From an uncultured Actinomycetes bacterium (GTDB lineage: Bacteria; Actinomycetota; UBA4738; HRBIN12): a stretch of DNA of 64,000 bases. Both the position numbers and the translations under genes were made by a program. Position 1 is the first letter of the stretch; every line of letters starts with the position of its first letter. The stretch spans positions 1,342,942-1,406,941 of the forward strand of contig CAVQPR010000001.1 of NCBI GenBank assembly GCA_963714865.1, given 5' to 3'. The notes beneath the pieces are model-generated. The model was not told the origin of the DNA. It searched no databases and saw only the letters and a program-made list of their open reading frames with translations. Below, piece by piece: positions 9,477 through 33,640 of this stretch.

Positions 9477-12579
<3,103 letters not shown>

Positions 12580-12583
<4 letters not shown>

Positions 12584-14330: not shown

Positions 14331-14638
14331 CGGGCGACCGCCTCCTCCACGGGGCCGGTCTCGACCCGGCGCACGTGCGCCTGCAGGCGGTGGCCCAGGT
14401 TGCGGCAGGCACGCTCGAACTCCCAGGGGGTCCAGTCACGTCGGCGCATCTGCAGGACGTCCTCCTCCTGCTCCTGGCCGAAGTCGAAGCCCGAGCCGAG
14501 GTAGACGACGTCGGAGGACAGGTAGCGATCGACCACCGCGCGCGTGGATGAGTCGGCGGCCGAGACCGTGACCTGGCCGGGCCCCTCCCACAGCACGCTG
14601 GCAACGACCGTGCCGTCTCGCTCGAACTCGTACCTCAT
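14327..14638 (-). CDS. Hypothetical 103-aa protein, first gene of the ilv-leu operon
   Basis: AGAGGAG SD upstream of ATG 14638; stop overlaps the ilvB start (ATGA); globular-looking composition. Confidence 0.7.
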
Positions 14639-16723: not shown

Positions 16724-16765
16724 ATCATGAACGCGACCACGACCCCGCGCGCGTACATCCCATCG

Positions 16766-16815
16766 ATGTTCGTTTGAGATCGTTCTTGACCGGGAACGTT
16801 CGAACGGGCTAGCTT
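16766..16815 (+). promoter_or_regulatory. Leaderless promoter of the kinase-GcvT operon with an overlapping palindromic operator
   Basis: TTGACC (16786-16791), 18 nt, TAGCTT (16810-16815), 6 nt, GTG; CGTTC-N8-GAACG at 16781-16798; TGTTCGTTT at 16767-16775; CGTTCGAACG at 16797-16806. Confidence 0.6.
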
Positions 16816-16821
16816 GCGCTC

Positions 16822-17728
16822 GTGGACACGGTGCTCGAGGCCGGCCTGCGGGCCGTGCCCGGCTGGGCGGGTCGTGAGCTGGAGATCACGCCGATCGAGG
16901 CCGGCATCACCAACCGCAACTTCCGGGTCGACGTCGACGACGAGACCTTCGTGCTGCGCCTGTCCGGCCGCGATACCGACCTGCTGGGCATCGATCGACA
17001 CGCCGAGGTCGTGGCCGCTCGCGCCGCGGCGGCCGCGGGGGTCGGGCCGCCGGTGGTGGCGTTCCTCCCCGAGCACGAGACCCTCGTCACCCGATTCGTG
17101 CCGGGCGTCGCGATCCCCGAGGACGACCTGCAACGTCCCGAGGTGATCGGCCTGGTGGCGCGCTCGGTGCGCACGATCCACGGCCTGGCGCCGATCGCCG
17201 CTGAGTTCCCGGTGTTCCGCATCGTGCGGGACTACCGGCGGATCGCGCACGAGCGCGGCGTCGAGGCGCCGCCCGTCTACGACGACGCGCTCGCGGTGGC
17301 CGATCGGATCGAGGCGGCGTTGTCCGCTCGAGCCGGCGCCGTCGCTGCTCTGCCACAACGATCTACTGAACGGGAACTTCCTGCGAGACGGCGACCACGT
17401 GTGGATCGTCGACTACGAGTACGCGGGGATGGGCGACCGGTTCTTCGACCTGGGGAACCTGTCGATCAACAACGGCCTCGGTGCCGGGGCGCAGGAGGCC
17501 CTGCTGGGCGCCTACCTCGGGGAGGTCGGTGATCGCGACCGGGCCCATCTCGGACTCATGCAGATCATGTCGGACTTCCGCGAGGCGATGTGGTGCGTGG
17601 TCCAGCAGGCGATCTCGACGCTGGACGTCGACTACGTGGAGTACGCCGACCGGCACTTCACGCGCCTGATGGACTCCGCGGCGGACTCGCGGCTCGGCGA
17701 CTGGCTCGACGCGGTCAAGGGAGGCTGA
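16822..17728 (+). CDS. Choline/ethanolamine kinase-like phosphotransferase (frameshift near 17335)
   Basis: AGITNRNF, LLGIDR; after the shift CHNDLLNGNF and VDYEYAG (Brenner and ChoK motifs). Confidence 0.85.
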
Positions 17729-17729
17729 C

Positions 17730-20163
17730 GTGGACTCGTACCGCGCGATCGTGGTGGGGGGCGGGGTGGCCGGGGCCTCGATCGCCTACCACCTCACCGA
17801 GCTGGGATGGCGCGACGTCTTGCTCGTGGACCGCGACGAGCTCACGAGCGGCTCGACCTTCCACTCGGCGGGCCTGGTGGGCCAGCTGCGCTCGAGCGTC
17901 TCGCTCACGCGGATGATGATGCACGGCACCGACCTGTACCGGCGCCTGGCCGCCGAGACCGACGTCGACCCCGGCTGGCACGAGGTCGGATCCCTGCGCC
18001 TGGCCTCGTCGAAGGAGCGGATGGAGGAGCTCACCCGCCTGGTGGGCTGGAGCCAGACGTTCGGGCTGCCCCTCGAGATGGTCTCGGTCGAGCGCGCCCA
18101 CGAGATGTTCCCCCTGTTCGACACGACCGGCGTCGAGGGCGCCGTGTTCCTGCCCACCGACGGGTGGCTCGATCCGACCGGGCTCACGCTGGCCCTCGCC
18201 GCAGGGGCCAGGGCCCGCGGCGCCGAGGTTCGAACCCACACGCGCGTGACCGGGATCGACGTGCGGGACGGCCGGGTGCGCGGCGTGGTCACCGAGGACG
18301 GGCCCGATCGCCGCCGCCGTCGTCGTCAACGCCGGCGGGATGTTCGCGAACCAGATCGGCCGGATGGCCGGCGTCGAGGTCCCGGTGATCCCCTTCGCCC
18401 ACCAGTACCTGCTCACCGCGCCGATCGAAGGGGTGGAGCCGACCTTCCCCACGCTGCGCGACCCCGACCGCCTCGTCTACTTCCGACAGGAAGCCGGCGG
18501 GACGCTACACGTCGGGGGCTACGAGCGCGACCCCGCGCCCTGGATGGTGGCCGACGGGCCCCCGGCCGACTTCAACAACAAGCTGCTGGCCGAGGACTGG
18601 CCCCGGTTCGAGTCGCTGGCCGAGGGCGCCTTCTCGCTCGTCCCCGCCCTGCACGACGCCGAGGTCGTCAAGATGATCAACGGGCCCGAGGCCTTCACGC
18701 CCGACGGCGAATTCATCCTCGGCGAGTCCGACGTCCGCGGGTTCTTCGTGGCCGCCGGGTTCTGCGCGCACGGGATCGCGGGCGCGGGCGGGATCGGCAA
18801 GGTGATCGCCGACTGGATCGTCCACGGCGAGCCCGAGTGGGACGTGTGGAAGATGGACGTTCGACGGTTCGGGCCGCAGTACCGCTCGCGCGACTACTCC
18901 CTGGCCCGCGCCTACGAGGTCTACGCCACCTACTACGACATCCACTATCCCGGCGAGGAGCGCGAGGCCGGGCGGCCGCTGAAGACCGCCCCGACGTACG
19001 GGCGCCTCGCGGAGATGGGCGCCGTGTTCGGCGAGAAGTCGGGCTGGGAGCGGGTGAACTGGGTCGCCGCGAACGAGGACCCGACCCACGAGTCTCGTCG
19101 CCCACGCGGGTGGGCCGGCGAGCACTGGTCGACCGCCATCTGCGCCGAGCACCTCGCGTGCCGCGAGCGCGTCGCGCTGTTCGACGAGTCGAGCTTCGCC
19201 AAGATCGAGGTGAGCGGCGCGGGCGCGGTCGCGCTGCTGCAACGCCTGTCGGCCAACGACGTCGACCGGCCGCCGGGCACGGTCGTGTACACGCAGATGC
19301 TCGACGGCCGTGGGGGCATCCAGTGCGACCTCACGATCACGAGACTGGACGATGACCGGTTCATGCTGGTGACCGGCACCGCGTTCGGGACCCACGACCT
19401 CGGGTGGATCCGCGCGCGGCTCGCCGACGGCGACCATGCCGACGTCTCGGTGCGCGACGTGACCGGATCGCTGGCCTGCTTCGGTGTGTGGGGGCCGAGG
19501 GCGCGCGACGTGCTCGGCGCGCTGACCTCCGCCGACCTGTCGAACGAGGCGTTCCCGTACATGACCGCCCGCCAGATCGTGGTGGGCAGCGTGCCGTGCT
19601 GGGCGCTGCGGGTGACCTACGTCGGCGAGCTCGGCTGGGAGCTGTACCCCGCGGTGGAGTTCGGCGGGGGCATGTTCGACGCGCTGCTGGCGGCGGGCGA
19701 GCCCCACGGGATCGCGGTGGCCGGCTACCGCGCGATCGATTCCCTGCGCCTGGAGAAGGGATACCTGGCCTGGGGCAGCGACATCACCCCCGAGGAGCAC
19801 CCGTTCGAGGCCGGGCTCGGGTTCGCCGTGCGCATGGACGTGCCCGGGTTCATCGGCAACGAGGCGCTGGAGCGCCTCGCAGGCATGGAGCACGTGAAGC
19901 GGATGGCCTGCGTCGTGCTCGAGGATCCCAACGCGATGGTGCTCGGCAACGAACCCGTGTTCCACGCGGGAGAGGTGATCGCGCGGGTGACCTCGGGCGG
20001 GATCGGCTACGCGGTGGGGGCGAGCATCGCCCTCACCTACCTGCCGGTGGCCCTCGCCGGGGAGGGAACACCGCTCGACATCGAGGTGTTCGGCGAACGG
20101 GTGGCGGCCCGGGTGGCGACCGCGCCCCTGTGGGACCCGACGGGCGAACGGATCCGGGCCTGA
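17730..20163 (+). CDS. GcvT-family FAD/folate-dependent amine oxidoreductase (DMGO/sarcosine dehydrogenase-like; frameshift near 18305)
   Basis: GGGVAG, GSTFHSAG, NGPEAFTPDG, FGEKSGWER, RVTYVGELGWE, SLRLEKGY. Confidence 0.9.
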
Positions 20164-20825
20164 TGGGCGGCGGCACGCTCACCGCCGGCCGCGGCGAGAC
20201 CCTCGTGTGCACGATCCGCCACGGACTCACGATCTTGAACCGCGACAAGCGGGTGGGCGGGCGCACCGACGTGCCCCTGTTGGAGGAGGGTCGTGAGCAG
20301 GCACGCGCGGCGGGCGCGACGTTCGAGGGACGGCGCGTCGACACGGTGGTCGCCTCACCCCTGCTGCGGGCGATCGAGACCGCCGAGCTCGTCACCGGGC
20401 GGGACCGCGCCGCCTTCGAGATCGACCGGCTCTGCACCGAGCGATCGTTCGGCGAGATGGAGGGGATGGACCCCGCCGAGGTACCGGGGCGGTTCCCCCA
20501 GGTCGAGTACCGGCGGATCGGCCATATCGCCTACTCCCTGAACCCGCCCGGCGGCGAGACGTTTCCGCAGCTGCAGGAGCGCGCCGGGCGATTCCTGGAC
20601 GGACTGCTGGATCGCCACGCGGGCGCCCATGTCGTGGTGTTCTCGCATCAGAACTTCATGCAGCAGCTCCACGCGGTGCTCCGCGGCGAGGGCCCGTTCC
20701 GAGCGCTCGAATACGACATCCTCAACTGCGAGCTGAACGAGTTCCGACTGGGTCCAGATCGCACGCTGATCGCCCACCGGGTCGAGCAGCTGGTGCCCTC
20801 GGCCGGAGAACACGCCTCCTTCTGA
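20163..20825 (+). CDS. Histidine phosphatase (phosphoglycerate mutase superfamily)
   Basis: IRHG, SPLLRAIETA, PPGGE, FSH; TGATG coupling on both sides. Confidence 0.85.
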   Translation: MGGGTLTAGRGETLVCTIRHGLTILNRDKRVGGRTDVPLLEEGREQARAAGATFEGRRVDTVVASPLLRAIETAELVTGRDRAAFEIDRLCTERSFGEMEGMDPAEVPGRFPQVEYRRIGHIAYSLNPPGGETFPQLQERAGRFLDGLLDRHAGAHVVVFSHQNFMQQLHAVLRGEGPFRALEYDILNCELNEFRLGPDRTLIAHRVEQLVPSAGEHASF

Positions 20826-22141
20826 TGGCCTCCCGTCGGCTCGACGCCGCCCACGACGACCTGGCGACGCGGTTCGCGGAGTCGTTCCCGGCGCGGCGCC
20901 CCCGCCACACCGTCGGACGCGAGTCGGAGTTCCCGCTCGTCGACGCGACCGGCCGCGCCGGCGATCACGGGCTCCTGTGGCCCGACCTCGCCGCGGGCCG
21001 CACCGTGCTCCGCGACCCCGGCGTCGACGGCCGAGGGCTCGACATCGGCGTCGCGGCGGCGCGATGGTTCGCGATCGCCGAGGTGGGACGCGGGACGGTC
21101 GAGATCGGGGTCGGGCCGCGGCGCTCGCTCGGGGAGCTGTCGGGCGATCTCGACGACGCGCTCGGAGCGGTGGGCCCGGCCGTCACGGCGGGCGGACAGC
21201 GGCTTCTGGGCCTCGGCATCCAGCCGCGCACTCCGCCCTCACCCGCCCTGATGACGCCGAAGGTCCGCTACGCGGCGCTGTTCGAGGTGATCCCGCGCTG
21301 GGCCCGGTGGAGCGTCACCGCCAGCGATCAGGTGCACGTGCGCCTGGGTCGCGACGAGATCGTCGACGCGATGAACGCCCTCAACGCGTGCTCGGGCGCG
21401 ATGGTCGCCCTGTGTGCGAACTCGTCGGTCTACGGCGGGCAACGGGGAGCCGCGAGCGGACGCGAGGCCCTCGGCGCAGGGGTGACGTCCGAGCCCTTCC
21501 GCAACGGCGCCGTGCCGCGACGGTTCGCCGACCTCGCCGACTACGTGCGCTGGACCTCGGGACTGCGGTGCCTGATCCTGCCCGATCCCCGGGGCGGGTT
21601 CGTGCGCCCGGGCGGCACCTACGACGACCGCCTCCGCCGACGCGCGGCCGACTGGGAGGAGTACCTGTTCCACGAGCACTACTGCTGGCCCAGCGCCCGG
21701 CCGCGGGCACGGCTCGGCACGCTCGAGATCCGGCCCGCGTGTCAGCAGCCCGAGGGCTCGTTCGCGGCGGCGGCGCTGGCCGTGGGGCTCGTCGAGCGGG
21801 CAGAGGAGGTCCTGGGCTTCCTCGACGACATCCTCGGCCGCACGGCGTGGCGCCGGCTGCTCGCCTACCGCCGCCGGGCCGTGCGCGACGGGCTGCGGGC
21901 CCCCGAACCCGCGGCCGGGTTCCTCGCCGGGCTCGTCGACATCGCGGGGCGGGGTCTCGCGGATCGAGGACTGGGCGAGGCTCCGATGCTCGACGAGATC
22001 CGCACGAGGCTGGCGCGGCGGCGAGGCCCTGCCGAGGACGCCTGGCGGATCCTCGAGCGGCGCGGCGTCGACGGGCTCGTGCGCGCGATGACCCTGGGCA
22101 AGCGCTCGGCCCCGAGCGATCAGTCCGCCTCGCGACCCTGA
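20825..22141 (+). CDS. Glutamate-cysteine ligase / carboxylate-amine ligase family protein
   Basis: VGRESE, TVEI, TASDQVH, ANS, RPR...LEIRPACQ. Confidence 0.75.
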   Translation: MASRRLDAAHDDLATRFAESFPARRPRHTVGRESEFPLVDATGRAGDHGLLWPDLAAGRTVLRDPGVDGRGLDIGVAAARWFAIAEVGRGTVEIGVGPRRSLGELSGDLDDALGAVGPAVTAGGQRLLGLGIQPRTPPSPALMTPKVRYAALFEVIPRWARWSVTASDQVHVRLGRDEIVDAMNALNACSGAMVALCANSSVYGGQRGAASGREALGAGVTSEPFRNGAVPRRFADLADYVRWTSGLRCLILPDPRGGFVRPGGTYDDRLRRRAADWEEYLFHEHYCWPSARPRARLGTLEIRPACQQPEGSFAAAALAVGLVERAEEVLGFLDDILGRTAWRRLLAYRRRAVRDGLRAPEPAAGFLAGLVDIAGRGLADRGLGEAPMLDEIRTRLARRRGPAEDAWRILERRGVDGLVRAMTLGKRSAPSDQSASRP

Positions 22142-22431
22142 GAGAAGCTGTGCCCGTTCCAATACGCGCGGAGGACGGGGCGTCGGCGGCCCGACAGGCG
22201 CAGATGGATCTCGTCGGGCGTGCCACGGTCGCCGGCGTCGTAGTGCACGTCGAAGTCCTCGCCACGGAACGTCACGAACTCACGGTCGGCGCCCGGCGAC
22301 TCCGTCGAGGCCTCGAGGGTGAACACCTGGTCGAACCCGTATCCGTAGACCATCCCGATCGGCCACACGAACACCTGGCCGCCGCTGGCTCGCACGTACT
22401 CGACGACGTCGTCGGTGGCGAGGATCTTCAT
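22120..22431 (-). CDS. Hypothetical protein (possibly HesB-like fold)
   Basis: TAGGGT 6 nt upstream of ATG (leaderless); non-shadow amino acid composition. Confidence 0.65.
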   Translation of the reverse strand: MKILATDDVVEYVRASGGQVFVWPIGMVYGYGFDQVFTLEASTESPGADREFVTFRGEDFDVHYDAGDRGTPDEIHLRLSGRRRPVLRAYWNGHSFSQGREAD

Positions 22432-22468
22432 GCGTCCACCCTACGCTCGGTCTCGGCAACGGGGGACC

Positions 22469-23368
22469 TCAACTCGCCGCGGAACGCAGCAGGCGCGCGT
22501 AGTCAGGTCCGCCCATGACCGCCTCGGCCCGGTCCCAGCGCTCGATCGCCCAGCCGAAGAAGTCGAAGTCGATGTCGGAGATCTTGGCCTGGATCGCGGC
22601 CCACAGCGTCCAGCCGACGTCGGCGATCATCGCGTAGAGATCCATCCGGGCAAGTAGCACGGGGTCGAGCCGGCCGAAGTAGGCCTCGCAGAGGGCGGCC
22701 CTGAGTTCGTCGTCGTATCCGCACTCCTGCGCGGTGTCGCCCAGCTCGAAGCAGGGATCGTCGTTGCCGCTGTACTCGAAGTCGATGATCCACAGCTGGG
22801 ACCCGTCGTCGATGTAGTTCTCGGCCAGCAGATCGTTGTGGCACGGGACCCGCGGGAGCGCGTTGATCGCCATCACCGGCTCGAGCGCCTCGACCGTAGC
22901 GAGGCGGTCCCAGTAGCCGTCGGGAACGAGCACGTCGTGATCCTCGACGATCTTCACGTAGTACTCGATCGTGCGGAACATGTCGAAGTCGGACAGGAAC
23001 CGGGGGCCGGCGTGGAGGCGACGGAGCGACGCGGCCATGCGGGCGGGCATCTGGGGTTCGCGCAGGCGCTCGGGCGACATCGTGACGCCGTCGATGAACG
23101 GGAGCACCATCACGCTCCACTCCTCGACGTAGTCCAAGATCGCGGGCGAGACGCCGGTCGTGGCCGCGGCCGCCGCGTTGTGGCGTTCGTTCGCCCGGTC
23201 GACGGCCAGGAGCTCGGTCGACGCGCCGGGGATGCGCACGACGTAGCGGTCCTCGCCGGCGGTGACCACGTAGTTGGCGTTCGTGAGGCCGCCCGACAGC
23301 TCCGTCGCCACGGGATCACGCCCGCGCCACAGGTCCACCCGCTCGAGCACATCGTCGATCGTCGCCAT
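22469..23368 (-). CDS. Choline/ethanolamine kinase-like phosphotransferase
   Basis: GGLTNANY, LLAVDRANE, CHNDLLAEN, IDFEYS. Confidence 0.9.
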   Translation of the reverse strand: MATIDDVLERVDLWRGRDPVATELSGGLTNANYVVTAGEDRYVVRIPGASTELLAVDRANERHNAAAAATTGVSPAILDYVEEWSVMVLPFIDGVTMSPERLREPQMPARMAASLRRLHAGPRFLSDFDMFRTIEYYVKIVEDHDVLVPDGYWDRLATVEALEPVMAINALPRVPCHNDLLAENYIDDGSQLWIIDFEYSGNDDPCFELGDTAQECGYDDELRAALCEAYFGRLDPVLLARMDLYAMIADVGWTLWAAIQAKISDIDFDFFGWAIERWDRAEAVMGGPDYARLLRSAAS

Positions 23369-23380
23369 GTCGCTCCCTCC

Positions 23381-25771
23381 TCAGGCCTCAGGCGGTGCCT
23401 CGCCGCGCAGCGGCGCGTCGGCCAGCACCTCGGCCATCACCCGCTCCCCGAACACGTCGACCTCGAGCCGCTCGCCCCGCTCGATCGCAGCCGGGAGCGA
23501 CGCCGTGACCAGGTGCCGGCCCACCGTGTACCCGAGCGCGGAGCTGCGCACCCGTCCCAGCGTCTCGTCGCCGCGCACCACGGCCTCCCCGCCGTACGCG
23601 GTCACGTAGCCTCCGTCGCCCAGGCCCAGGGCCCGTAAGCGATGCGACGGCTCGGCCCGCGCGAGCAGGGCGTCGCGACCGACGAAGTCCCGATCCTCGG
23701 AGACCACGAAGGCCCCCAGCCCCGACGCGAACGGGTCGTCGCTCGCCGTCAGGTCGCTCCCCAGCGCCCGGAAGCCGGCCTCCAGTCGCAGGCCGTCGAT
23801 CGCCCGATAGCCGCACGGCTCGATCCCGTGATCGCGTCCGGCCAGCATCAGGGTGTCCCACACGTGGACCGCCCATCCGGGCTCCACGTACAGCTCCCAA
23901 CCGGGCTCCCCGACGTAGCTCACGCCCTGGGCCCACACGTCGACCCCGGCCACCGGCAGTTGCGCCCCGTCGAACCGGCCGGGGCCCCGCACGCCCAGGG
24001 CGCCAAGCGCGTCGGGCGCCGCCACCCCCCATACGGCGATGACCGCAAGGTCCTCGGACACGTCGCGCAGCGTCACGTCGTCCCCGGCGTGCATCCGGAG
24101 CCATCCCAGATCGGCGTCGACGGCCGCCGCGCCCGTGACGACCCGGAACCGGTCCTCGGCCAGACGCACGACGGTCACGTCGGACAAGATGCCGCCGTCG
24201 GGGGCGAGGAACTGCGTGTACACGATCCGCCCGACCGGACGGTCGATGCGGTTGGCCGACACCCGCTCGAGGAGGGCGAGTGCGCCGGTCCCGCCGACCT
24301 CGATCTTGCCGAACGAGGACAGGTCGAACAGGCCCACCCGCTCCCGCACGGCCGCATGCTCCTCGCCGACTCGGCCGAGCCACGGGGGCGGGGCGAACCC
24401 GTAAGCCCGCTGGTCGGCCCCCGCGCGACGCCACGCCGCTCCGGGCTCGAAATGGTCCGGGCGCTCCCAGCCGTGCTTGACCCCGAACACCGCGCCAGCG
24501 TCCTGGAGTGCCGAATGGAGCGGCGATACGCGCCGTGGCCTCCCCCATTCATCCTGGTCGAAGGGGTATCGCTGCAGGTAGTAGTAGCGGTAGGTCTCGC
24601 GGGCGAGCTCGGCCACCCAGGCGGGATCCTCGTGGACGCTCCCGAAGCGCCAGGGCCGGTAGGGCGCAGACATCCCACTCCGTATCGCCCTCGACGATCG
24701 CCTGCGAGAGCATGCGCCCCATCCCACCGGCCCCGCCGAATCCGTTGAGCGAGAGCCCGGCCGCCATCCAGAAGCCGCGCACGCCCGGGACGGGTCCGAG
24801 GAGCGGGTTCGCGTCGGGCGTCATCGCGTCGGGGTGACACACGAGCTTGACCATTCCGGCACCTTCCAGGAACGGGAACCGCCGGATCGCGCCGCGCATC
24901 AGCGGCTCGAACCGTGACTGGTCGGCGGGCAGCGCGGTCGCCCCGTGACCCCAGGGAGCGCCGTCGATCCACCGGGCGGCCGGGTCGCCCTCGTAGCCGC
25001 CGAACAGGATGCCGCCGGCCTCCGACATCCCGTAGACGAGGTTGTCGGGATCGCGGAAGCACGGCATGTCCCGCGGCAGCTCGTGCCCAGGGGCCGCGGC
25101 GATCGCCACGTGCTGATGGTCCACGGGGGTCGAGGGCACGCGGACTCCGACCATCGCCGCGACGCGAGGGCCCCACAGCCCGGTGGCGTTCACCACCACC
25201 TCGGTCTCGATCCGCCCCCGCTCGGTCGTCACGGCGGCCACCGACCGCGCCGGCGTCAGCTCGATCCCGGTGACGCGTTCGTTCGTGAGGATCCGGGCCC
25301 CCAGCGCCCGGGCGCCGTCGGCCAGCGCGTGCGTCGCCGAGTGCGGGTCCAGGTGGCCGTCGCCCGGCATCCAGACCGCGCCGTAGAGGTCGTCGGGGCT
25401 CACCGCCGGCATCAGATCGAGGGTCTCGGCCGGGCCCAGGAGCTCGGCGTCGAGGCCGATGCCCGCGGGCCCGGGACACGCCACGCTGCAGTTCCTGCAG
25501 CTGGGCCGGGCTCGACGCGATGCCGCAGCGATCCCACCCCCTCGAACACGCCGAGCGAACGGTAGAGCTCGATCGAGTAGCGGCGGAACCGCATCATCGT
25601 GGGCGACGGGTTGAACGCCGTGACGAGCCCGGCCGCGTGCATCGTGGAGCCGCTGGTCAGCTCGCCCTTGTCGATCAGGCAGACGTCGTCCCATCCGGCC
25701 AGGGCCAGGTGGTAGGCGACGCTGCATCCGGTCACCCCGCCGCCGATCACGACGGCGCGCGCGCGATCCAC
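23381..25771 (-). CDS. GcvT-family FAD/folate-dependent amine oxidoreductase (frameshifts near 25520-25470 and 24665)
   Basis: GGGVTG, GSTMHAAG, DAMTPDANP, FGVKHGWER, SYVGEPGWE, GLRLEAG across ORFs 25412..25771, 24549..25727 and 23381..24727. Confidence 0.85.
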
Positions 25772-25799
25772 CCCTGCTCCTTCCCCGGACCGTGACGTG

Positions 25800-25831
25800 C
25801 GACGGGGCGGGACCGAAGCCCCGCCCCGTCG
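25800..25831 (-). terminator. Strong intergenic stem-loop with a C(UUCG)G tetraloop
   Basis: Minus strand CGACGGGGCGGG-GC-TTCG-GT-CCCGCCCCGTCG; no U-tract. Confidence 0.6.
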
Positions 25832-25847
25832 ACGTGCGCCCTCCGGC

Positions 25848-27482
25848 CTACTCCGGCGGGATCTCCTGGAACGCGTACTCCACCTTCAGGCCCTTCTTGG
25901 CCTGAACCGATCGCATCACGAAATACACGATCAGCCCGATCGCGGCCGTACCCAGCACGATCAGGTACGGGAGCGAGTCGGTCGAATACGCGAGCCCCAG
26001 CTCGGGCACGAACAGGAACGACAGGACCATGAACCCACCCAGCAGGAAGCCGAGCAGCCCGACCAACGTGACGGTCGGCAGGTTCCCGATCTTGTATCTG
26101 GCACCCGGCGAGGCCTCGTACACCGCCTTGGCCCGGTAGGGCAGCAGGGCGGCGGCGAGGGCCGAGATCACCATCACGGCGCCGTTCGCGAACGTGACCC
26201 CCAACGTCCACCGCGTCCAGCTGCTCACCTTGTTGTACCCGTAGATCACGGGCAAGGCGGCCAGGAAGTACGCGATGTGCGCGTTGACCGGGGTCTTGAA
26301 CTTCGGGCTGACCCGCGAGAACCAGTCGGGCAGCAGGCCGTCGAGCCCCTGCGCGACCATGATGCGGGTCGTGCCGATGTAGCAGTTACAGACGATCTGG
26401 AACGAGTTCAGGATGAACCCGAGCCCGATGAGCAGGACGATCACCCAGCTTCCGGTGAGCCCCATCGCCATCAGGTTCGGGAACATGTAGTTCCCGCCGA
26501 TCGTCGCCTCCGGCACGGCGTACCAATACCCGGACGACGCCGTGAGGATCCCGTCGGTGCCGATCCCCTTCTGCATGGCCAGGGCCAGCAGGATCAGCAG
26601 GCCGGCCACAGCGGTGAGCGATCCGACGAGGATGAACACCTGGTTGCGGAACACGTGGGCGTTCTTGACCTCGCCGCCTTGTTCCACCGAGTAGGTGGCC
26701 CACTGCAGGCTCGTCCACGCGATCGGCGCGACCATCAAGGTGCCGAACAGCCAGAACGGCGGGTTGAAGTCCACCCCGGCCGCCGCGGCCGCGCCCTTGG
26801 CGCTCGCGAAGAACCCCGTGACGCCGTCGACGCTGTTCGCGAAGCCGTCGAGCTTGAGCTGTGCGGCCGTCGGGTTGGTCGTCAGGAACAGCAGGAGCAC
26901 GAGGCCGAACGAGATCAAGATCGCGTACCACATCACGAACTGGAACCGCACGTAGTTGCGGAACCCGCTCACGAGCAGCACGAGCGCGACCCCAGCGTTC
27001 ACGACGCTGATGATGATGATGCCGTTGGCCGACGCGGCCCACGTCCCGATGTCGGTGAACGTGCTCACGCCGGTGGTCACGCCCAGGCCGATGAACGTCG
27101 GCGCGATGCCGAGCGTCGCCATGAGCCAGCCGGACAGTGCGACCCACTGCAGGATCCACACCACGAAGAACGCGAACACGACGGTGAACCCGAACCCTCC
27201 GCCGAAGACCCTGCTCTGGAACACGTAGTCGCCTCCGGATCGAGGCAACGCCGTGGCGAGCCAGGCATAGGCGAGCGCGATCGGCAGTTCGAACAGGAAG
27301 GCGAACCCGATGCCGAGGACGAGGTTGGAGCCCTGGAACGCCGTGGGCGCCCACAGGTACGTCCACGGGAAGATGACTCCCATCGTCAGCACGTTGTAGA
27401 TGAACGCCGAATACGGTGACATCACCCGGACGAGCCCGGAGGCCCGCCGCGTGAATACCTGCGGCGCTGCTGCTTCCGCCAT
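25848..27482 (-). CDS. APC family amino acid/amine permease
   Basis: FTRRASGLVR, PRSGGDYVF, about 12 TM segments, C-terminal FQEIPPE. Confidence 0.9.
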   Translation of the reverse strand: MAEAAAPQVFTRRASGLVRVMSPYSAFIYNVLTMGVIFPWTYLWAPTAFQGSNLVLGIGFAFLFELPIALAYAWLATALPRSGGDYVFQSRVFGGGFGFTVVFAFFVVWILQWVALSGWLMATLGIAPTFIGLGVTTGVSTFTDIGTWAASANGIIIISVVNAGVALVLLVSGFRNYVRFQFVMWYAILISFGLVLLLFLTTNPTAAQLKLDGFANSVDGVTGFFASAKGAAAAAGVDFNPPFWLFGTLMVAPIAWTSLQWATYSVEQGGEVKNAHVFRNQVFILVGSLTAVAGLLILLALAMQKGIGTDGILTASSGYWYAVPEATIGGNYMFPNLMAMGLTGSWVIVLLIGLGFILNSFQIVCNCYIGTTRIMVAQGLDGLLPDWFSRVSPKFKTPVNAHIAYFLAALPVIYGYNKVSSWTRWTLGVTFANGAVMVISALAAALLPYRAKAVYEASPGARYKIGNLPTVTLVGLLGFLLGGFMVLSFLFVPELGLAYSTDSLPYLIVLGTAAIGLIVYFVMRSVQAKKGLKVEYAFQEIPPE

Positions 27483-27515
27483 ACCCCCCTCCAATCTGTG
27501 CGGTGGTTCCTCCGG

Positions 27516-28520
27516 CTACCCGGAGGTGAACTGCTGTCCCACCACGTCGCCATCCCGGATGGCGACGATCACGCCTCGCAGCACCCCCTCTCCGTACTCG
27601 CTTCCCGGGTTGTACGCGGGGGTCCGGTCGAATTGCGCCGACCCCCGGGCCTCATGGATGTGTCCGTGCAACCCCACGGTGGGCTGGTACCTCGTGAGCG
27701 CGTCGGTGACCGACTGGGAGCCCGCGCCGTAGTACACGGGCTGACCCCGCTCGATCAGCGGGGTGGGCGGCCACACGCTGGCGTCCAGCTTGAGACAGCT
27801 GTCGAGCGTCGAGTCGAGCGGCGGACAGTGGAAGTTGAAGACGGCCCGGCCGGGGTCGGCGACATCGGCGAGCAGGTCGTCGATCACCTTGCCGATCTCC
27901 TCGTCGGTGCGCTCGCGAGGGGTGTCCCAGGGCGTCGGCGTCGAGTAGCCCACGGTGATGAGGGTATGGACCTCGTCGTCCAGCGGCACGACCCGGTTCT
28001 CCGCGCTCACCACCCGCTCCTGTGGCGCCTCGTCGAGGGCGCTCAGCACCACGTCCGTGTCGTCGTTCCCCCCGCATAGGTACACCTTTACGTGGGTCCC
28101 GTCGAGCCGCTCCTCGGCCAGATTCACCCACTCGGCCAGTCGTTCCTTGGCCAGGACATCGAACAGGTCGTCGATGCGGTCCTGATCGCCGACGTAGGCC
28201 TCGTACTCCTCGGGATCCATCTCCTGCCAGTAGAACCCCAGGGTCTGCAGGGCGCGCTTGAACTGAACCATCGCGTCCGGCGAGGTGATGTGGTGGTCCT
28301 GGCCCTGGAGGTGAGCACGCCAGGAGTCGCCGACGTCGCTCACGATGGGGACGAGCATCTTGCCCATCAGGTCGCCCCCGAACACGAGGGCGTCGACCTC
28401 GTAGAACTTGGCCGCGTTGAGGAACTTGCGGTACGTGGGCTCGGAACCGTGGATGTCGCTCGCGTAGAAGAGGCGGGTGGGCGTCCCCTTGGATGCCCCC
28501 TTCTTCGAGAACAGTCCCAT
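27516..28520 (-). CDS. Metallophosphoesterase (Icc-related); in frame with the upstream nucleotidyltransferase-like ORF
   Basis: SDIHG, GGDL, GNDD, FHCPP, HGHIHE, NPGSEY; own SD GGAGGAGG at 28533-28526. Confidence 0.85.
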   Translation of the reverse strand: MGLFSKKGASKGTPTRLFYASDIHGSEPTYRKFLNAAKFYEVDALVFGGDLMGKMLVPIVSDVGDSWRAHLQGQDHHITSPDAMVQFKRALQTLGFYWQEMDPEEYEAYVGDQDRIDDLFDVLAKERLAEWVNLAEERLDGTHVKVYLCGGNDDTDVVLSALDEAPQERVVSAENRVVPLDDEVHTLITVGYSTPTPWDTPRERTDEEIGKVIDDLLADVADPGRAVFNFHCPPLDSTLDSCLKLDASVWPPTPLIERGQPVYYGAGSQSVTDALTRYQPTVGLHGHIHEARGSAQFDRTPAYNPGSEYGEGVLRGVIVAIRDGDVVGQQFTSG

Positions 28521-29288
28521 CACGGCCTCCTCCGTGAGCGCGACCTCATCGACCTCGCGGTACCAACGCTTCCGATCGCCCACCTTGGCGCGGATCTTCC
28601 ATCCCGTCGACTTCGGCTGGGCCTCGATCCTCTCGAGCGCGGCCGCCACCTGGGCCGAGACGCGCCCGGTCTCGTCGGTGGTGAGGGCGTCGTAGTGCTC
28701 CGCCATCTGGCGCACCTTGTCCAGGTTCATCGTGAGGGTGCGCCACCACCCCCAGTCCTTCGCACAGATCTTCGCCACACGGGCGACGTTGATCGTGTCG
28801 CGGTCGTCGTCGCCCAGGGGGTACTCGAGGAGGAGCATCATCGTGTCGATCAGGTCCTTCTCGTTGATCTCGACGATCTGCATCTTCTGCAGGAGCAGGT
28901 CCGACAGCGGGATCGTGTCGGGATCGATCTCCAACCGGCCCTTCCACAACACGGTGTGGCAGAACTCGAGCTTGTCGAAGAACACGTCGATATGCAGCCC
29001 CGTCCCCGGGTGCTCGGCCACGACCCTCGTGCCCTCCGACCCCACGTAGACGTGCGGGTCATCCACGTATCCCGCCTCGGCCAGCATCTGCCGGATCGGA
29101 TCGGCCTGCTTGCCGTACGCGGCGAAGTCGATGTCGGTGTAGTGGCGGCCGAGCCGTTCACGAAGGTACTCGTGATCGGGGCACCGTCGAGCGAACGCGA
29201 CGGCGCCCAGCACGCGCAGGATGAGACCCCGCTCGTTCGCCATCTGCAGGAGACGCTCGGCCTCGGCCTCGAAGGTCTCCCTATCCAC
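28521..29288 (-). CDS. Nucleotidyltransferase-like protein (pol-beta fold, 256 aa), N-terminal part of ORF 27516..29288
   Basis: LRVLGAVAF followed by TDIDF (DxD) and a third acidic strand HIDVF; KMQIVEINEKD. Confidence 0.65.
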
Positions 29289-30081
29289 GCCGTCTCCCGG
29301 AGGCGGCGAGCTCGGAGGCGACGACCACGTCGATCCCCGCGTGGGTCAGCTGGGCGCGGTAGTCGTCGTCGAGGCCGGCATCGGTGACGACCGCGGTCAC
29401 GCGGTCGAGGGTCGCGACGGCGAAGTCGGCGATCGTTCCGACCTTCGTGTGGTCGGCCACCACCACCACGTCGCCGGTGGTCTGCTCGATCATCACGCGG
29501 GCGACCTCGGCCTCGGGGGCCGCTGGGGTCGTGAGGCCGGTCCGAAGCGACAACCCCTCCACGCCGATGAACGCCCGGGTCGCGAAGACGCGTCGCAGCG
29601 CCTCGATCGCGAACCCGCCGACACAGGAATTGGACTGCGGGCGGTAGTCACCCCCCACGAGCAGGAGCTCGACGCCGTGCTCGTCGGCCTCCATCGCCAT
29701 GCCGACGTGGTTCGTCACGACGCGAGCCCCCGAGGCGCGCAGGTGCCGGAACACGTGCAGGGTCGTCGTGCCCCCGTTCAGGAACACGGTGTCACCGGGG
29801 CGAACCAGCGCGGCGGCCGTGGCTCCTATCGCGCGCTTGAGCTCGGTATTCGCGGTCGAGGCCTCCGAGTAGGGGGTCTCGGCGCTCAGCCGCTGGGCGA
29901 GGATCGCTCCCCCGTGCGTGCGCTCGAGCGCGCCCCGTTGCTCCAGCTCCTCGAGGTCGCGGCGCACCGTGACCTCCGAGACCCCGAACTCCTCGGCCAG
30001 CGCCGACACTCGGACCGCGTGGCGCTCCCGCAGCAGCGCCTCGATCCGACGGTGCCGTTGTGCCGGAAGCGGCTGTTCCAC
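29281..30081 (-). CDS. DeoR/GlpR family transcriptional regulator
   Basis: VSEVTVRRDLEELE, RTHGGA, LNGGTT, VVTN, ADHTK; GTG start with GGAGG upstream. Confidence 0.93.
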   Translation of the reverse strand: MEQPLPAQRHRRIEALLRERHAVRVSALAEEFGVSEVTVRRDLEELEQRGALERTHGGAILAQRLSAETPYSEASTANTELKRAIGATAAALVRPGDTVFLNGGTTTLHVFRHLRASGARVVTNHVGMAMEADEHGVELLLVGGDYRPQSNSCVGGFAIEALRRVFATRAFIGVEGLSLRTGLTTPAAPEAEVARVMIEQTTGDVVVVADHTKVGTIADFAVATLDRVTAVVTDAGLDDDYRAQLTHAGIDVVVASELAASGRRRG

Positions 30082-30119
30082 GCATCCCTCCACGGGCTCA
30101 CGCCAAGGGCGCTCATGAC

Positions 30120-30160
30120 CGAACGGGAGCGAGTTTGTTCGTTTCCGACCGAGAACGCAA
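30120..30160 (-). promoter_or_regulatory. Putative deoR operon promoter with operator-like palindrome
   Basis: Minus strand TTGCGT, 17 nt, CAAACT; on plus CGTTT-N8-GAACG at 30140-30157, TGTTCGTTT at 30136-30144, CGAACGGG at 30120-30127. Confidence 0.5.
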
Positions 30161-30179
30161 GCCTGCCTTCGCCTGCGAC

Positions 30180-30206
30180 CGAACCCCGCCGAGGAGTGAT
30201 ACGAAT
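30180..30206 (+). promoter_or_regulatory. SigK-like ECF promoter
   Basis: CGAACC-N15-ACGAAT resembles the mycobacterial SigK consensus CCATCC-N15-CCGAAT; 9 nt upstream of ATG 30216. Confidence 0.4.
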
Positions 30207-30215
30207 CTCGAACAG

Positions 30216-31835
30216 ATGGCATCGCCCCACACCTCGACACCGACCCACGCAACGTCCGCGGGCGCCGAACGGCGGTACGGCGCGATCGCCGGACTCCTGG
30301 TGGCGGCGGTCGCCCTCGCGGTAGCGCACCTGGTGGCCGCGGGCATCGATGGGCGGTGGTCGCCGGTGGTCGCGGTGGGCAGCGCCGCGATCGACCTGTC
30401 GCCGCCCGCGCTCAAGTCGTTCGCCATCGGCGCGTTCGGCGTCAACGACAAGGCCGTGCTCCTTGTCGGCATCGTGGTCATGACGGCGCTCGCGGCGGCG
30501 CGTCTCGGCCAAGCGGCGATGCGGCGGCCGCGCGCCGGCTATCAGGGCCTCCTGGTGTTCACCGCCGTCGGCGTGGCGGCGGGACTCTCGCGGCCAGGCG
30601 CGAGCGCGGCGGCCGTCGTCCCGGCCCTGGCGGGCGGCATCGCGAGCTCGGCCGCCCTATGGGCGCTGTTGCGGACGCGCCGGTCGGCGGCCGAGGAGCA
30701 AACAGGAGCGGCCGACGGGGATGGACGAACGGAGCCGGGGCCGATCGCCACGCCGAGCGGTCCGGGCACCGTAGATCGACGCCGATTCATCGGGGCGGGT
30801 GCGGCGATCGGCGGCATCGCGCTGGCCGCCGGAGGGCTGTCCCGCGTGGTCGGCTCCTGGAGCCGCGTGGACGCATCCCGGCTGGCGCTCGAGGCTCCCG
30901 AGCCGGCCTCGGCCGCCGCGGTGCTCCCGAGGGGCGTGCAGGTCGACGCCCCGGGCGTCTCCCCTTTCATCACGCCCAACGACACGTTCTACCGTGTCGA
31001 CACCGCCCTGTTCACGCCTCGGATGACGGCAGAGAACTGGCAGATGCGGATCCACGGGATGGTCGACCGCGAGATCCGCCTGGACTACGCCCAGCTGCTG
31101 GCCCGCCCGCTGATCGAGCGCGACATCACGCTCTCCTGTGTCTCGAACGAGGTGGGTGGCGGCTACATCGGCAACGCGCGGTGGATCGGCGCCCCGTTGC
31201 GCGACCTCCTCGAAGAGGCCGGCGTCCATCCGGAGGCCGACCAACTCCTGTCGACCTCCACCGATGGTTTCACCGCCGGGTCCCCCACGTCGGTGATCAT
31301 GGACGGACGCGATGCGATGCTGGCCGTGCAGATGAACGGCGAACCGCTGCCCGTGGAGCATGGCTTCCCGGTGAGGATCGTCGTCCCCGGCCTCTACGGC
31401 TACGTCTCCGCGACCAAGTGGGTGGTGAGCCTGGAGCTGACCACGTTCGCCGCGGCCCAGGCGTATTGGATCCCCCGAGGCTGGGCCGCGCAGGCGCCCA
31501 TCAAGACCGCCTCGCGGATCGACGTCCCGCGTGACCGGGCCACGGTCGATCCCGGGACGGTGGCGATCGCGGGGGTCGCCTGGGCGCAGCATCGCGGGAT
31601 CGCCAAGGTCGAGGTGCGCGTCGACGACGGGGCGTTCGTGGAGGCGACCCTGGCGATCGAGGACACCGAGGATACGTGGCGCCAGTGGCTGCTCCCCTGG
31701 GAGGCCACATCGGGGGACCACGTGATCGCCGTCCGCGCGACCGACGGCGATGGCGAGACCCAGACCGAGGATCGAGTGCCGCCTGCCCCCGACGGTGCCA
31801 CGGGCTGGCACACGATCCGCGTCACGGTCCGCTGA
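30216..31835 (+). CDS. Membrane-anchored sulfite oxidase-family molybdopterin oxidoreductase
   Basis: N-terminal TMs, internal RRRFI, FYRVDTA, LSCVSN, EHGFPVR, PGLYGYVSATKW. Confidence 0.9.
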   Translation: MASPHTSTPTHATSAGAERRYGAIAGLLVAAVALAVAHLVAAGIDGRWSPVVAVGSAAIDLSPPALKSFAIGAFGVNDKAVLLVGIVVMTALAAARLGQAAMRRPRAGYQGLLVFTAVGVAAGLSRPGASAAAVVPALAGGIASSAALWALLRTRRSAAEEQTGAADGDGRTEPGPIATPSGPGTVDRRRFIGAGAAIGGIALAAGGLSRVVGSWSRVDASRLALEAPEPASAAAVLPRGVQVDAPGVSPFITPNDTFYRVDTALFTPRMTAENWQMRIHGMVDREIRLDYAQLLARPLIERDITLSCVSNEVGGGYIGNARWIGAPLRDLLEEAGVHPEADQLLSTSTDGFTAGSPTSVIMDGRDAMLAVQMNGEPLPVEHGFPVRIVVPGLYGYVSATKWVVSLELTTFAAAQAYWIPRGWAAQAPIKTASRIDVPRDRATVDPGTVAIAGVAWAQHRGIAKVEVRVDDGAFVEATLAIEDTEDTWRQWLLPWEATSGDHVIAVRATDGDGETQTEDRVPPAPDGATGWHTIRVTVR

Positions 31836-31907
31836 CCCCACGATCCGTGAGCGCGTTCGGCCGGCCCGCCATATAGTCCGTTCGCCCGGATCGAGGAAGG
31901 GGGAGCC

Positions 31908-32363
31908 ATGCGCAAGATCGCGTTGCTCGCGGTCGTCGCCACGGTGGGGGTGATCGTCTTCGCCGCGGTGGTGCAGTCCGCCGGAGCGGGAGGACCGATG
32001 GTGGTGACCGTCGTCGAACACGTCACCACCGACAAGGTGATCGACGTCGGCAAGCCGGGGGATTCGTCCGGCGACCTGCTGACGTTCGCCAACCAGGTGT
32101 ACGACGACACGAACACGTCGCGTGTCGGCCGAGACCAGGGAAGCTGCATCCGCATCAGCCCGGGACGAGGGCTGTGGCAGTGCAGCTGGACCACATGGTT
32201 CAACGGTGGCTCGATCACCGTCGAGGGCCCGTTCTACGACGATAGGAACAGCACGCTCGCGATCACGGGCGGCACCGGCGTCTATTCGTCGGCCACCGGG
32301 TCGATGAACCTGCGGTTCCGCCCCGACCCGACCGAGCTCGACTTCGTCTACACGATCGGCTAG
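31908..32363 (+). CDS. Secreted dirigent / allene oxide cyclase barrel-like protein
   Basis: Signal peptide; GDSSGD.LTF, VGRDQGSC, GSITVEG, AITGGTGVY. Confidence 0.7.
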   Translation: MRKIALLAVVATVGVIVFAAVVQSAGAGGPMVVTVVEHVTTDKVIDVGKPGDSSGDLLTFANQVYDDTNTSRVGRDQGSCIRISPGRGLWQCSWTTWFNGGSITVEGPFYDDRNSTLAITGGTGVYSSATGSMNLRFRPDPTELDFVYTIG

Positions 32364-32403: not shown

Positions 32404-33640
32404 AGCCGCCGATCGCGGCGAGGAACTCGTCGAGGTCGGGCGCGACGTGGTAGCTGGGCTCGAGGAATCCCTCGAGCGCGTCGATCGTCTTGTATCCGTT
32501 GCCAGTGACGTAGGCGACGACCTCCTCGTCACGCCGGACGATGCCCCGATCGACCATCCGCTTGAGGTTGGCGATCGTCACGCCGCCGGCCGTCTCGGTG
32601 AACACGCCCTCGGTGCTGGCCAGCAGACGGATCCCTTCGCGGATCTCCTGCTCGGTGCACCACTCGATGTGTCCGCCGGTCCCCCGCGCCACCTTGAGGG
32701 CGAAGAAGCCGTCGGCCGGCGCCCCGATCGCGAGCGATCGGGCGATGGTGTCGGGCTTGACGGGGGTGATCTCCTCCTCGCCGTCGAGGAACGCCTGCGC
32801 AACCGGTCGGCAACCCTCGGGCTGGGCTCCGGAGACCCGGTAGGGCTTCTCCTCGACGGCCCCGACGGCGATCAGCTCGCTGAAGGCGCGGTGGATCTTC
32901 GTGAGCAGGGCGCCGCTCGCGATCGGCACGACCACGTGGTCGGGCAGCCGCCATCCGAGCTGCTCGGCCGTCTCGAAGCCGAGCGACTTCGATCCCTCCG
33001 CGTAGTAGGGACGCATGTTCACGTTGACGAAGGCCCACGGGAGCGCGTCGGCCACCTCGCAGCAGAGCCGGTTCACGTCGTCGTAGTTCCCCTTGACGGC
33101 GACGACCTTGGCGCCGTACGCCTCGGTGGCCAGGATCTTGGCGCGCTCGAGGTCGTCGGGCACGAACACGTAGCAGTCGAGCCCGGCCTTCGCGGCGTGG
33201 GCCGCCGTGGCGTTGGCCAGGTTGCCCGTCGACGCGCACGACACCGTCGAGTACCCGAACGCACGCGCCATCGTGACGGCTACCGACACCACGCGGTCTT
33301 TGAACGAGTTGGAGGGGTTGACCGAATCGTCCTTGATCCACAGCGTCTCGAGCCCGAGCTCACGAGCCAGGTTGTCGGCGCGACGAAGTGGCGTGAACCC
33401 GGCGCCGAGGTCGACCCGCTCGATGCCGGGGCCGCCCGGTAGCAGCGACTCGTAGCGCCAGAGCGTTCGCGGCCCACCCTCGGCCTGCGCCTTGAACTCA
33501 TCGCCGTCCACCGACTGGAGGTCGTAGGCCGGCTCGAGCGGGCCGAAGCACTCCTCGCAGATCGTGAGCGGTTCGACGGGGTACTGCTGTCCGCAGATCC
33601 GGCACTGCAGGGCGCCGGGGGTCTCGATGAGAGTGCTCAC
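32402..33640 (-). CDS. thrC: Threonine synthase
   Basis: N-terminal CxxC..Cxx[23 protein letters not shown]; GTGA overlap with the ilvD stop. Confidence 0.88.

Follow-up and report, generated by a model that had tools for sequence, protein, structure and literature searches.

We analysed a gene cluster at positions 16766..30160 of a 64-kb window, the window being the whole stretch of DNA examined here (C1:1342942-1406941 of an Actinomycetota genome). The assembly of this genome amounts to 2.69 Mb in 3 contigs, with a marker completeness of 78%, and the G+C content of the window is ~70%. Genes were called from codon-position G+C, using frame plots of the G+C content at third codon positions (GC3), together with Pfam scans of the reading frames. 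Two convergent gene strings are seen at 16.8-30.1 kb, encoding two pairs of a choline-kinase-like enzyme and a predicted flavin- and folate-dependent N-demethylase, together with a permease, a metallophosphoesterase (MPE), a nucleotidyltransferase-like (NTase) protein and a DeoR-family regulator. Neighbouring genes abut or overlap by a few bases. The genes and their order as listed in an initial annotation of this DNA were all borne out by Pfam on the reading frames; a 103-aa open reading frame (ORF; 22431-22120), missing from that list, has been added.

Gene content and conservation of the cluster

The features of the locus are as follows.

16760..16821, plus strand: promoter/operator region of the plus arm, holding TGTTCGTTT at 16767-16775, with GTTC/GAAC half-sites nearby
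16822..17728, plus strand: kinL, kinase of the choline/ethanolamine kinase family (APH fold), matching Pfam Choline_kinase and APH
17730..20163, plus strand: oxL, predicted N-demethylase resembling dimethylglycine dehydrogenase (DMGDH) and dimethylglycine oxidase (DMGO), matching Pfam DAO, FAO_M, GCV_T and GCV_T_C
~20160..20825, plus strand: histidine phosphatase, accessory; Pfam His_Phos_1, 144 bits
20825..22141, plus strand: GCS2-family carboxylate-amine ligase-like protein, accessory; Pfam GCS2, 59.5 bits
22120..22431, minus strand: conserved 103-aa ORF of an unnamed family, downstream of kinR; GC3 0.88
22469..23368, minus strand: kinR, kinase of the choline/ethanolamine kinase family, intact; Choline_kinase 86 bits, APH 80 bits
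23381..25771, minus strand: oxR, second oxidoreductase, DAO-FAO_M-GCV_T-GCV_T_C, with Pfam matches on three ORF pieces
25848..27494, minus strand: APC-superfamily permease of an unnamed subfamily; Pfam AA_permease_2, 61.8 bits
27516..28520, minus strand: MPE, with a weak Pfam Metallophos match and an in-frame fusion to the NTase here
28521..29288, minus strand: NTase-like protein of predicted Pol-beta fold, with invariant carboxylates
29281..30081, minus strand: DeoR/GlpR-family regulator, matching Pfam HTH_DeoR and DeoRC
30082..30200, minus strand: promoter/operator region of the minus arm, holding TGTTCGTTT at 30136-30144 (plus strand)

The regulator is called from the GTG at 30081, from which the DeoR protein of a related locus (L004) aligns, and not from 30252, the start of the longest ORF. 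Locus L004 encodes intact proteins and served as the tblastn reference for reading frames. No Rfam family reached its gathering score in the window.

Conservation was assessed by two independent scans. A kinase-centred scan of species-representative genomes with kinR gave 80 loci, of which L001-L039 are mostly from Actinomycetota metagenome-assembled genomes and L040-L080 from Chloroflexota; an NTase-centred scan of metagenomes also gave 80 loci, of which 29 span 6 kb or more. Gene presence at each locus was scored by tblastn with the window proteins. The kinR-scan counts are lower bounds, as many contigs are short: out of 80 loci, an oxidoreductase with the DAO-GcvT domain combination was found in ~65, the APC permease in 64, NTase/MPE in 59 and DeoR in 28, whereas the sigma factor and the 439-aa ORF that flank the cluster were found in none. 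Among the 29 longer loci of the NTase scan, DAO-GcvT was present in 27, MPE in 24 and the APC permease in 23, while a kinase, DeoR and a CBS-pair protein were each present in 21. Both scans therefore recover DeoR, NTase, MPE, the APC permease and two kinase/DAO-GcvT pairs in Actinomycetota and Chloroflexota. The initial annotation had set co-conservation beforehand as one of the tests that could refute its proposal of a single system, and the genes are indeed co-conserved, in two phyla and independently of the bait gene. Its supposition that the cluster matches no characterised pathway also stands, as far as our literature searches reach: these returned neither a description of the cluster nor a matching pathway, with most subscription journals outside their coverage. 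Overall, this is a real, widely conserved and uncharacterised gene cluster of soil and water bacteria.

Gene order in the Actinomycetota loci is the same as in the window; the Chloroflexota loci are arranged as two divergent operons, DeoR-MPE-APC-kinR-oxR and NTase-CBS-kinL-oxL. The histidine phosphatase and the GCS2-like ligase, which had been counted as parts of the pathway, are accessory and not core, being found always together but in only 6/80 loci of the kinR scan and 1/29 of the NTase scan. For the phosphatase, alpha-ribazole and acid phosphatases top the list of NCBIfam models, all below cut-off, and the NCBIfam matches of the GCS2-like protein are likewise below cut-off. The 103-aa ORF has no Pfam or NCBIfam match, and gave tblastn matches in 30 of the 80 kinR loci, each directly after kinR.

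Chloroflexota clusters are often joined by further genes, namely an MttB-family methyltransferase (19 loci) with a PfkB kinase adjoining it (16), an ABC transporter with a PhnS-like binding protein (~14), a CBS-pair protein (13) and PHO4/PhoU (7-8). In L004, electron transfer flavoprotein (ETF) genes lie upstream of the cluster, and its flanks also carry a BetI-type TetR and an amine oxidase. Sugar-type genes stand beside the cluster in single loci (L125 14114-17008; L051 2-931), comprising class II fructose-bisphosphate (FBP) aldolase, an aminotransferase, a HAD hydrolase and transaldolase/FSA. A variant cluster of Anaerolineales (L040, L041, L044, L045, L048, L057, L061, L067, L072 and L078) has an MPE of ~35% and an APC permease of ~27% identity, a kinR orthologue of ~55%, a diverged NTase and no DAO-GcvT gene. 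It is followed by a protein of 250-281 aa that looks secreted or membrane-anchored and has no Pfam match; on these grounds the 281-aa protein beside the variant NTase was rejected as a candidate transferase.

As assembled, the 13.4 kb of the cluster contain six frame-breaking indels, one in kinL, one in oxL, three in oxR and one at the NTase/MPE junction. The kinL break lies at ~17321-17328, as judged by GC3 plots and by tblastn with the intact L004 kinL (58-61% in two frames), and the oxL break at ~18301-18305, with L004 oxL aligning at 70-74% in two frames. Alignment of L004 oxR runs through frames -1, -2, -3 and -1 of oxR, placing its breaks at ~25521-25508, ~25474-25463 and ~24661. DNA alignment with three relatives reveals an extra G at ~28523, which removes a TGATG stop/start overlap and fuses NTase and MPE into one 590-aa ORF (29288-27516). 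Wherever both halves were found at another locus, they form separate ORFs. The 590-aa ORF has 1846 matches, and since none of the best 120 is fused, the fusion lends no support to a bifunctional NTase-MPE enzyme, and this candidate was rejected.

If the six indels were real mutations, the cluster in this genome would be a decaying pseudogene array. Their density would fit such a history, as would the absence of the NTase from 5/5 other same-genus genomes searched, which would imply that loss is ongoing in the lineage. We nevertheless regard decay as unlikely. Essential housekeeping genes of the window (6844-14435, 32405-35359) are damaged alike: ilvB is split into two ORFs and lacks part of its middle domain, TPP_enzyme_M, leuA, leuB and ilvC are truncated, and ilvD runs into a gene for a PALP-domain (pyridoxal-phosphate) enzyme. 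Because these ilv/leu genes are broken in the same way, the frame breaks of the cluster are probably assembly indels. The low marker completeness for a 3-contig assembly agrees with this, as do the location of the breaks in short G/C runs and a GC3 that is maintained at ≥0.9 across them. In addition, short-read contigs of close relatives (90-99% alike) are one base shorter at 24667, 25521 and 25847. Of these positions, 24667 and 25521 coincide with oxR breaks (two out of three), and at both the extra base is missing from the relatives. The remaining break sites, including those in kinL, oxL and NTase/MPE, are unbridged. Only two public soil-metagenome runs carry small shares of the stretch (0.09 and 0.08).

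Two kinase-demethylase pairs

Kinases for choline and ethanolamine carry a Brenner motif, HxDxxxxN, and a downstream DxEY. In kinR these read HNDLLAEN and IDFEY, and its score of 86 bits against Pfam PF01633 (Choline_kinase; cut-off 29) places it in the family by profile. Both halves of the broken kinL match Choline_kinase and APH, with Choline_kinase scores of 33 and 44.6 bits, and HNDLLNGN and DYEY can be read in the DNA of its second frame. The closest relatives of kinR in the PDB are 3dxq, a protein of the choline/ethanolamine kinase family (166 bits), and the choline kinase LicA (4r77, 81 bits), while APH(6) resistance models score only ~21 bits against the cluster kinases. The family is a large one: 7623 kinR homologues were found among 8000 scored, the best 120 at 65-100% identity. 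The top NCBIfam model for both kinases is GntI (NF041256), at 194.6 bits for kinR and 268.9 bits for L004 kinL with a cut-off of 357, and judged by these scores kinL and kinR are relatives of GntI and not members. GntI is reported to phosphorylate pre-guanitoxin following its N-hydroxylation (PMC12371840).

Both oxL and oxR have the full four-domain DMGDH architecture (DAO, FAO_M, GCV_T and GCV_T_C), which they have in common with DMGO (1pj5), DMGDH (4pab/5l46) and sarcosine dehydrogenase. They align end to end with DMGDH 4pab and DMGO 1pj5, at 429-540 bits. Against rat DMGDH and DMGO, the L004 orthologue of oxL reaches 540 and 512 bits, compared with 376 and 347 bits, respectively, for a third DAO-GcvT protein encoded in the window. 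By alignment only, a His in oxL and oxR coincides with the flavinylation site of DMGDH (STWHAAGL), and the HQY/HQH and Tyr regions align too. The catalytic dyad of DMGO is reportedly His225 and Tyr259, in a numbering taken from a reference title only. What sets oxL and oxR apart from these known enzymes is their strict pairing with a choline-kinase-like gene and their position in a clade of their own.

This pairing was examined in a FastTree phylogeny of 116 full-length DAO-GcvT genes out of the 160 loci, which split into two well-supported clades.

oxL clade: 51 genes, support 0.98; kinL adjacent in 38, kinR in 0, no kinase found in 13
oxR clade: 65 genes, support 0.997; kinR adjacent in 57, kinL in 0, no kinase found in 8

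One sequence with oxL as its best hit adjoins kinR; the tree places it in the oxR clade, to which we assigned it in the counts. Three further DAO-GcvT paralogues encoded here fall outside the two clades taken jointly (support 1.0); the genome has at least six full-length copies in all, oxL and oxR included. The initial annotation had noted a kinase and GcvT pair occurring twice with diverged paralogues; we see that this is so, and that each clade is tied to its own kinase. Because the oxL and oxR clades are strictly paired with kinL and kinR, respectively, the tree indicates two ancient kinase-demethylase modules and no chance juxtaposition.

The third DAO-GcvT gene of the window is intact and adjoins a Rieske oxygenase (51035-54993), for which the top NCBIfam model is the glycine betaine monooxygenase GbcA (163 bits, below cut-off). 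These two genes probably form a separate betaine/dimethylglycine module. The window also holds a phosphoesterase of the phospholipase C (PLC)/acid phosphatase family (PF04185; PC-PLC model 121 bits, below cut-off) and a BetI-type TetR, at 41788-43662 and 47477-48223.

The permease-linked module and the regulator

The NTase has no Pfam match at E 0.01 and no NCBIfam match. Residues D52, D54 and D101 are invariant in 52 sequences, giving the DxD pair and third carboxylate characteristic of Pol-beta-fold NTases. The structural model (pLDDT, the predicted local distance difference test score, 89.8) matches the folds of ANT(2'')-Ia (Z 12.3), MenT1 (12.1) and the lincosamide adenylyltransferase LnuA (10.5). 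PF14907 is found on 19% of one Atlas cluster that resembles the NTase, which we take as a lead only. The family comprises 2881 clusters at 50% identity, and the gene is present in 52/401 sampled genomes of the phylum (35/248 genera; among the 52, G018 and G120 carry an unpublished flag) and in 8/22 genomes of the same family, although in 0/5 of the other genomes of the genus.

Calcineurin-like MPEs carry the motifs DxH, GD, GNH(D/E), H and GHxH. In the cluster MPE, D22, H24, G49-D50, G151-N152-D153-D154, H231 and H285-G-H287 are invariant in 59 sequences, so that all metal ligands are kept, with GNDD in place of GNHD/E. The Pfam Metallophos score is 24 bits, and homologues number more than 1800. 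The best fold matches of its model (pLDDT 90.4) are aq_1956, TT1561, Mre11 and 5'-nucleotidases, which are generic and indicate no substrate. A predicted NTase-MPE complex scored 0.05 against a mark of 0.32, a result that is uninformative either way. The APC permease is 80% identical to its L004 orthologue and has no relative in the PDB by sequence.

In some genomes the NTase-MPE-APC trio is found without kinases. In the haloarchaeon Halobellus limi it lies beside an iron alcohol dehydrogenase, an aldehyde dehydrogenase and an IclR regulator. Elsewhere the trio stands beside a sulfatase, GcvT, DAO, FTHFS and MTHFR (G011), a glutamine-synthetase-like gene (G293), or an aldehyde dehydrogenase, a second MPE and a DAO-GcvT gene (G274). 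Judged by gene annotation, its partners vary and yet all concern amines or one-carbon units. The initial annotation had grouped NTase and MPE with the kinases, but their occurrence with the permease where no kinase is present places them with the latter. The trio is the deepest module of the cluster, and it looks like a transporter-linked one. It may act on the cargo of the permease, or regulate it, using a nucleotide. On its own, the trio constitutes an unexplained association that crosses domains of life.

The regulator has the DeoR/GlpR architecture, with HTH_DeoR at 62 bits and DeoRC at 142 bits, and is 68% identical to the L004 DeoR. Its NCBIfam scores reach no equivalog (GlpR 200, cut-off 300; AgaR 186, cut-off 260). 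A motif common to both promoters had been reported, and the 9-mer TGTTCGTTT does occur just twice in the window (16767 and 30136), once per arm and in promoter regions both times; the 2.69-Mb genome has seven copies. With at most one mismatch, it is also found in 8/32 upstream regions of Actinomycetota relatives. Longer conserved blocks, with GAACG/CGTTC half-sites before kinL and DeoR, emerge when seven upstream regions are aligned. The plus-arm promoter can be aligned with its counterparts before kinL in L003, L004 and L005, and the block GCGTTCTCG..GGAAACGAACAAACTCGCTC is kept upstream of DeoR in L004 and L011. The motif fits a common operator of both arms.

A proposed pathway and its alternatives

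Of the nitrogen- and methyl-bearing compounds set free from membranes, choline and its partly methylated relatives belong to the most abundant; in the known aerobic pathways, choline is first oxidised to glycine betaine. Enzymes of the DMGDH type act on carboxylate-bearing N-methyl amines. For the present cluster we infer a substrate, an order of steps, an effector, a gamma-glutamylation and roles for NTase and MPE from the gene content. We favour a cluster under DeoR repression that would break down an N-methylated amino alcohol, the likeliest substrates being the choline-derived bases N,N-dimethylethanolamine and N-methylethanolamine, and would assign this reading a probability of roughly 0.4. 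The APC permease would import the base, and the two choline-kinase-like enzymes would each O-phosphorylate one methylation state, adding an anionic handle. The DMGDH-like partner of each kinase would then oxidise one N-methyl group, passing it to tetrahydrofolate to give 5,10-methylenetetrahydrofolate, so that two rounds would lead to phosphoethanolamine. A flavin enzyme can remove two of the methyl groups, and there are two modules to match. Phosphoethanolamine would be dephosphorylated by the MPE; in some genomes the histidine phosphatase may do so instead, with the GCS2-like ligase assimilating the amine. A phosphorylated intermediate would be the likely DeoR effector at the operator common to both arms. 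A quaternary amine would need an MttB or Rieske enzyme for its first step, and in Chloroflexota the adjacent PfkB kinase and MttB-family methyltransferase may take off this first methyl group. More tentatively, and with a lower likelihood than the catabolic assignment itself, these parts may make up a new aerobic 'phospho-base' route for the choline head group, in which two kinase-demethylase modules, preceded in Chloroflexota by a PfkB-MttB step, are built around a hitherto unrecognised APC-NTase-MPE module of Actinomycetota, Chloroflexota and haloarchaea.

The logic put forward in the initial annotation, from import through phosphorylation and folate-linked demethylation to dephosphorylation, remains the best reading and now has a published precedent, although the histidine phosphatase and the GCS2-like protein drop out of its core. 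In Eubacterium limosum, choline must be phosphorylated before demethylation by an MttB-family enzyme, and the authors of that study consider that the phosphate supplies an acidic group that such demethylases need (Jiang et al., 2025; PMC12155760). The MthK/MthB/MthC/MthA system resembles our proposal in that a dedicated kinase first O-phosphorylates an amino alcohol, the phospho-base and not the free base is N-demethylated with transfer of the methyl group to tetrahydrofolate, and the kinase and demethylase genes are adjacent; the Chloroflexota clusters likewise have an MttB-family gene adjoining a kinase. The two differ in their enzymes, with MthK being serine-kinase-like and the kinases here of ChoK/APH fold, and with corrinoid methyltransferases in E. 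limosum in place of flavin/folate oxidoreductases of DMGDH type. They differ also in substrate and physiology, since the E. limosum system acts on a quaternary amine, whereas tertiary and secondary amines are predicted here, in an aerobic/respiratory setting with ETF genes nearby in L004. The cluster in this window holds no MttB, corrinoid protein or MthA, so the adjacent MttB that would identify its kinases and demethylases as MthK/MthB is absent. All four MttB-family loci of the genome (G000; C1:6192-7625, C3:2020-3453, C2:25121-26558 and C1:1417533-1419023) are outside the cluster. Two MttB genes, on C1 and the small contig C3, are intact, with near-equal scores of 535 and 533 bits, and C3 may be an assembly duplicate. 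The other two are frame-broken, and one of these is the nearest locus, ~10 kb past the window end and near further DAO-GcvT genes.

If correct, this proposal would provide a second, kinase-first and folate-linked entry of the choline head group into one-carbon metabolism, extending to flavin demethylases the principle of 'phosphorylate before you demethylate' that was described for an anaerobe in 2025. It would also give a function to very large unnamed families (>7600 kinases, >1800 MPEs and 2881 NTase clusters), carried by uncultured Actinomycetota and Chloroflexota of soil, groundwater and sludge.

Several points weigh against it. In the present assembly, frame breaks affect three of the four core catalytic genes. 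The NTase and MPE also accompany the permease where no kinase is near, and have no necessary role in the phospho-base scheme. There is no strict need for a second kinase as long as the intermediates remain phosphorylated, and a kinase and a phosphoesterase in one operon look futile barring some chemistry in between. Class II FBP aldolase, transaldolase and PfkB are present in some loci. We found no match to ethanolamine ammonia-lyase (EutB) in the genome, which is 78% complete, so that absence of the enzyme is not established. Lastly, oxL is closer to bona fide DMGDH/DMGO than is the third DAO-GcvT protein next to the GbcA-like gene, and could simply be a dimethylglycine dehydrogenase, and the cluster-linked MttB is closest to the glycine betaine methyltransferase MtgB (9yce, 2qne; 237 bits).

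These last observations lead to the alternative of classical glycine betaine demethylation, with oxL as dimethylglycine dehydrogenase and oxR as sarcosine dehydrogenase, which in Chloroflexota would receive their substrate from an MtgB-type betaine methyltransferase. On this view the kinases, together with NTase and MPE, would have a side role, for instance the handling of choline or phosphocholine upstream. The main argument for it is that oxL scores above any other paralogue tested against DMGDH and DMGO. The nearest relative of the linked MttB, the GbcA-like Rieske oxygenase, BetI-type TetR and PLC-family phosphoesterase of the window, and the ETF genes adjacent to the cluster in L004 all fit as well. 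Against this, a kinase would find no hydroxyl group on betaine, dimethylglycine or sarcosine, and yet the kinase pairing is strict (38:0 and 57:0), with abutting or overlapping genes. Betaine catabolism could be served by other DAO-GcvT paralogues of the genome, of which there are at least four at full length; three of these lie outside the single clade formed by oxL and oxR. We think this alternative improbable. Among the known pathways themselves, choline is oxidised to glycine betaine by BetAB/GbsAB, and betaine is broken down by GbcAB/DgcAB/Sox. The cluster has in common with them a general substrate family, a proposed one-carbon output and some of its surroundings, such as the iron alcohol and aldehyde dehydrogenases beside the H. 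limi trio and the GbcA-like and BetI-type genes of the window. However, those pathways have no kinases, and the cluster contains neither a choline dehydrogenase/oxidase nor a betaine aldehyde dehydrogenase, in keeping with the earlier view that this is not canonical choline catabolism.

An alternative of similarly low probability keeps the order of kinase and then demethylase but applies it to another hydroxylated N-methyl compound, such as norcarnitine or carnitine-derived amines, N-methylated serine or homoserine, or an N-methyl amino sugar or polyol, with the phosphate perhaps acting as a leaving group. DeoR-family regulators usually sense sugar or polyol phosphates, and GlpR and AgaR are the top matches here, albeit below cut-off; APH-fold kinases act on many alcohols, and PfkB, class II aldolase, aminotransferase, HAD phosphatase and transaldolase genes occur in some loci. 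ACAD10/11 reportedly offer a precedent for elimination by a kinase and a flavoenzyme (PMC12440821). Still, the kinases score best with choline/ethanolamine kinase models and structures, the sugar-type genes are sporadic and not core, and the GcvT domain favours removal of a one-carbon (N-methyl) unit over elimination. Far less likely is the modification or catabolism of an N-methylated aminoglycoside or aminocyclitol, in which the APH-like kinases and the ANT-like NTase would act on hydroxyls and the demethylases on N-methyl groups. The cluster does share with aminoglycoside APH/ANT pairs the APH fold of its kinases and the ANT(2'')- and LnuA-like fold of its NTase, but this fold match is generic, MenT-type toxins being equally good. 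No APH resistance model comes as close to the kinases as choline kinases do, and the cluster encodes uptake, folate-linked demethylation and a catabolic-type repressor. It is, moreover, a chromosomal trait that is highly conserved over hundreds of environmental lineages.

In its gene content our proposed catabolic cluster also resembles the lic pathway, which consists of the kinase LicA, the permease LicB, the cytidylyltransferase LicC and the transferase LicD. In both, a permease, a choline-kinase-family kinase and a nucleotidyltransferase-type protein are clustered. Here, however, the NTase is of Pol-beta/ANT-like fold and the permease of APC type, and the two N-demethylases and the DeoR repressor point to catabolism. 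As Pfam detects no LicC- or LicD-type family among the cluster proteins or the other ORFs of the window, the lic pathway, already discounted in the initial annotation, does not account for the locus.

Further genes lie beyond the minus-arm promoter. At 35327-36832 of the window is a DAO-family oxidoreductase gene that matches TIGR03329, 'putative aminophosphonate oxidoreductase', at 423 bits (cut-off 633) and adjoins a formate/nitrite transporter. The immediate flank (30356-32360) encodes a molybdopterin oxidoreductase and a small allene-oxide-cyclase/dirigent-like protein, and the same two genes are likewise found near the cluster in L005 (2644-3105, 16675-18279).

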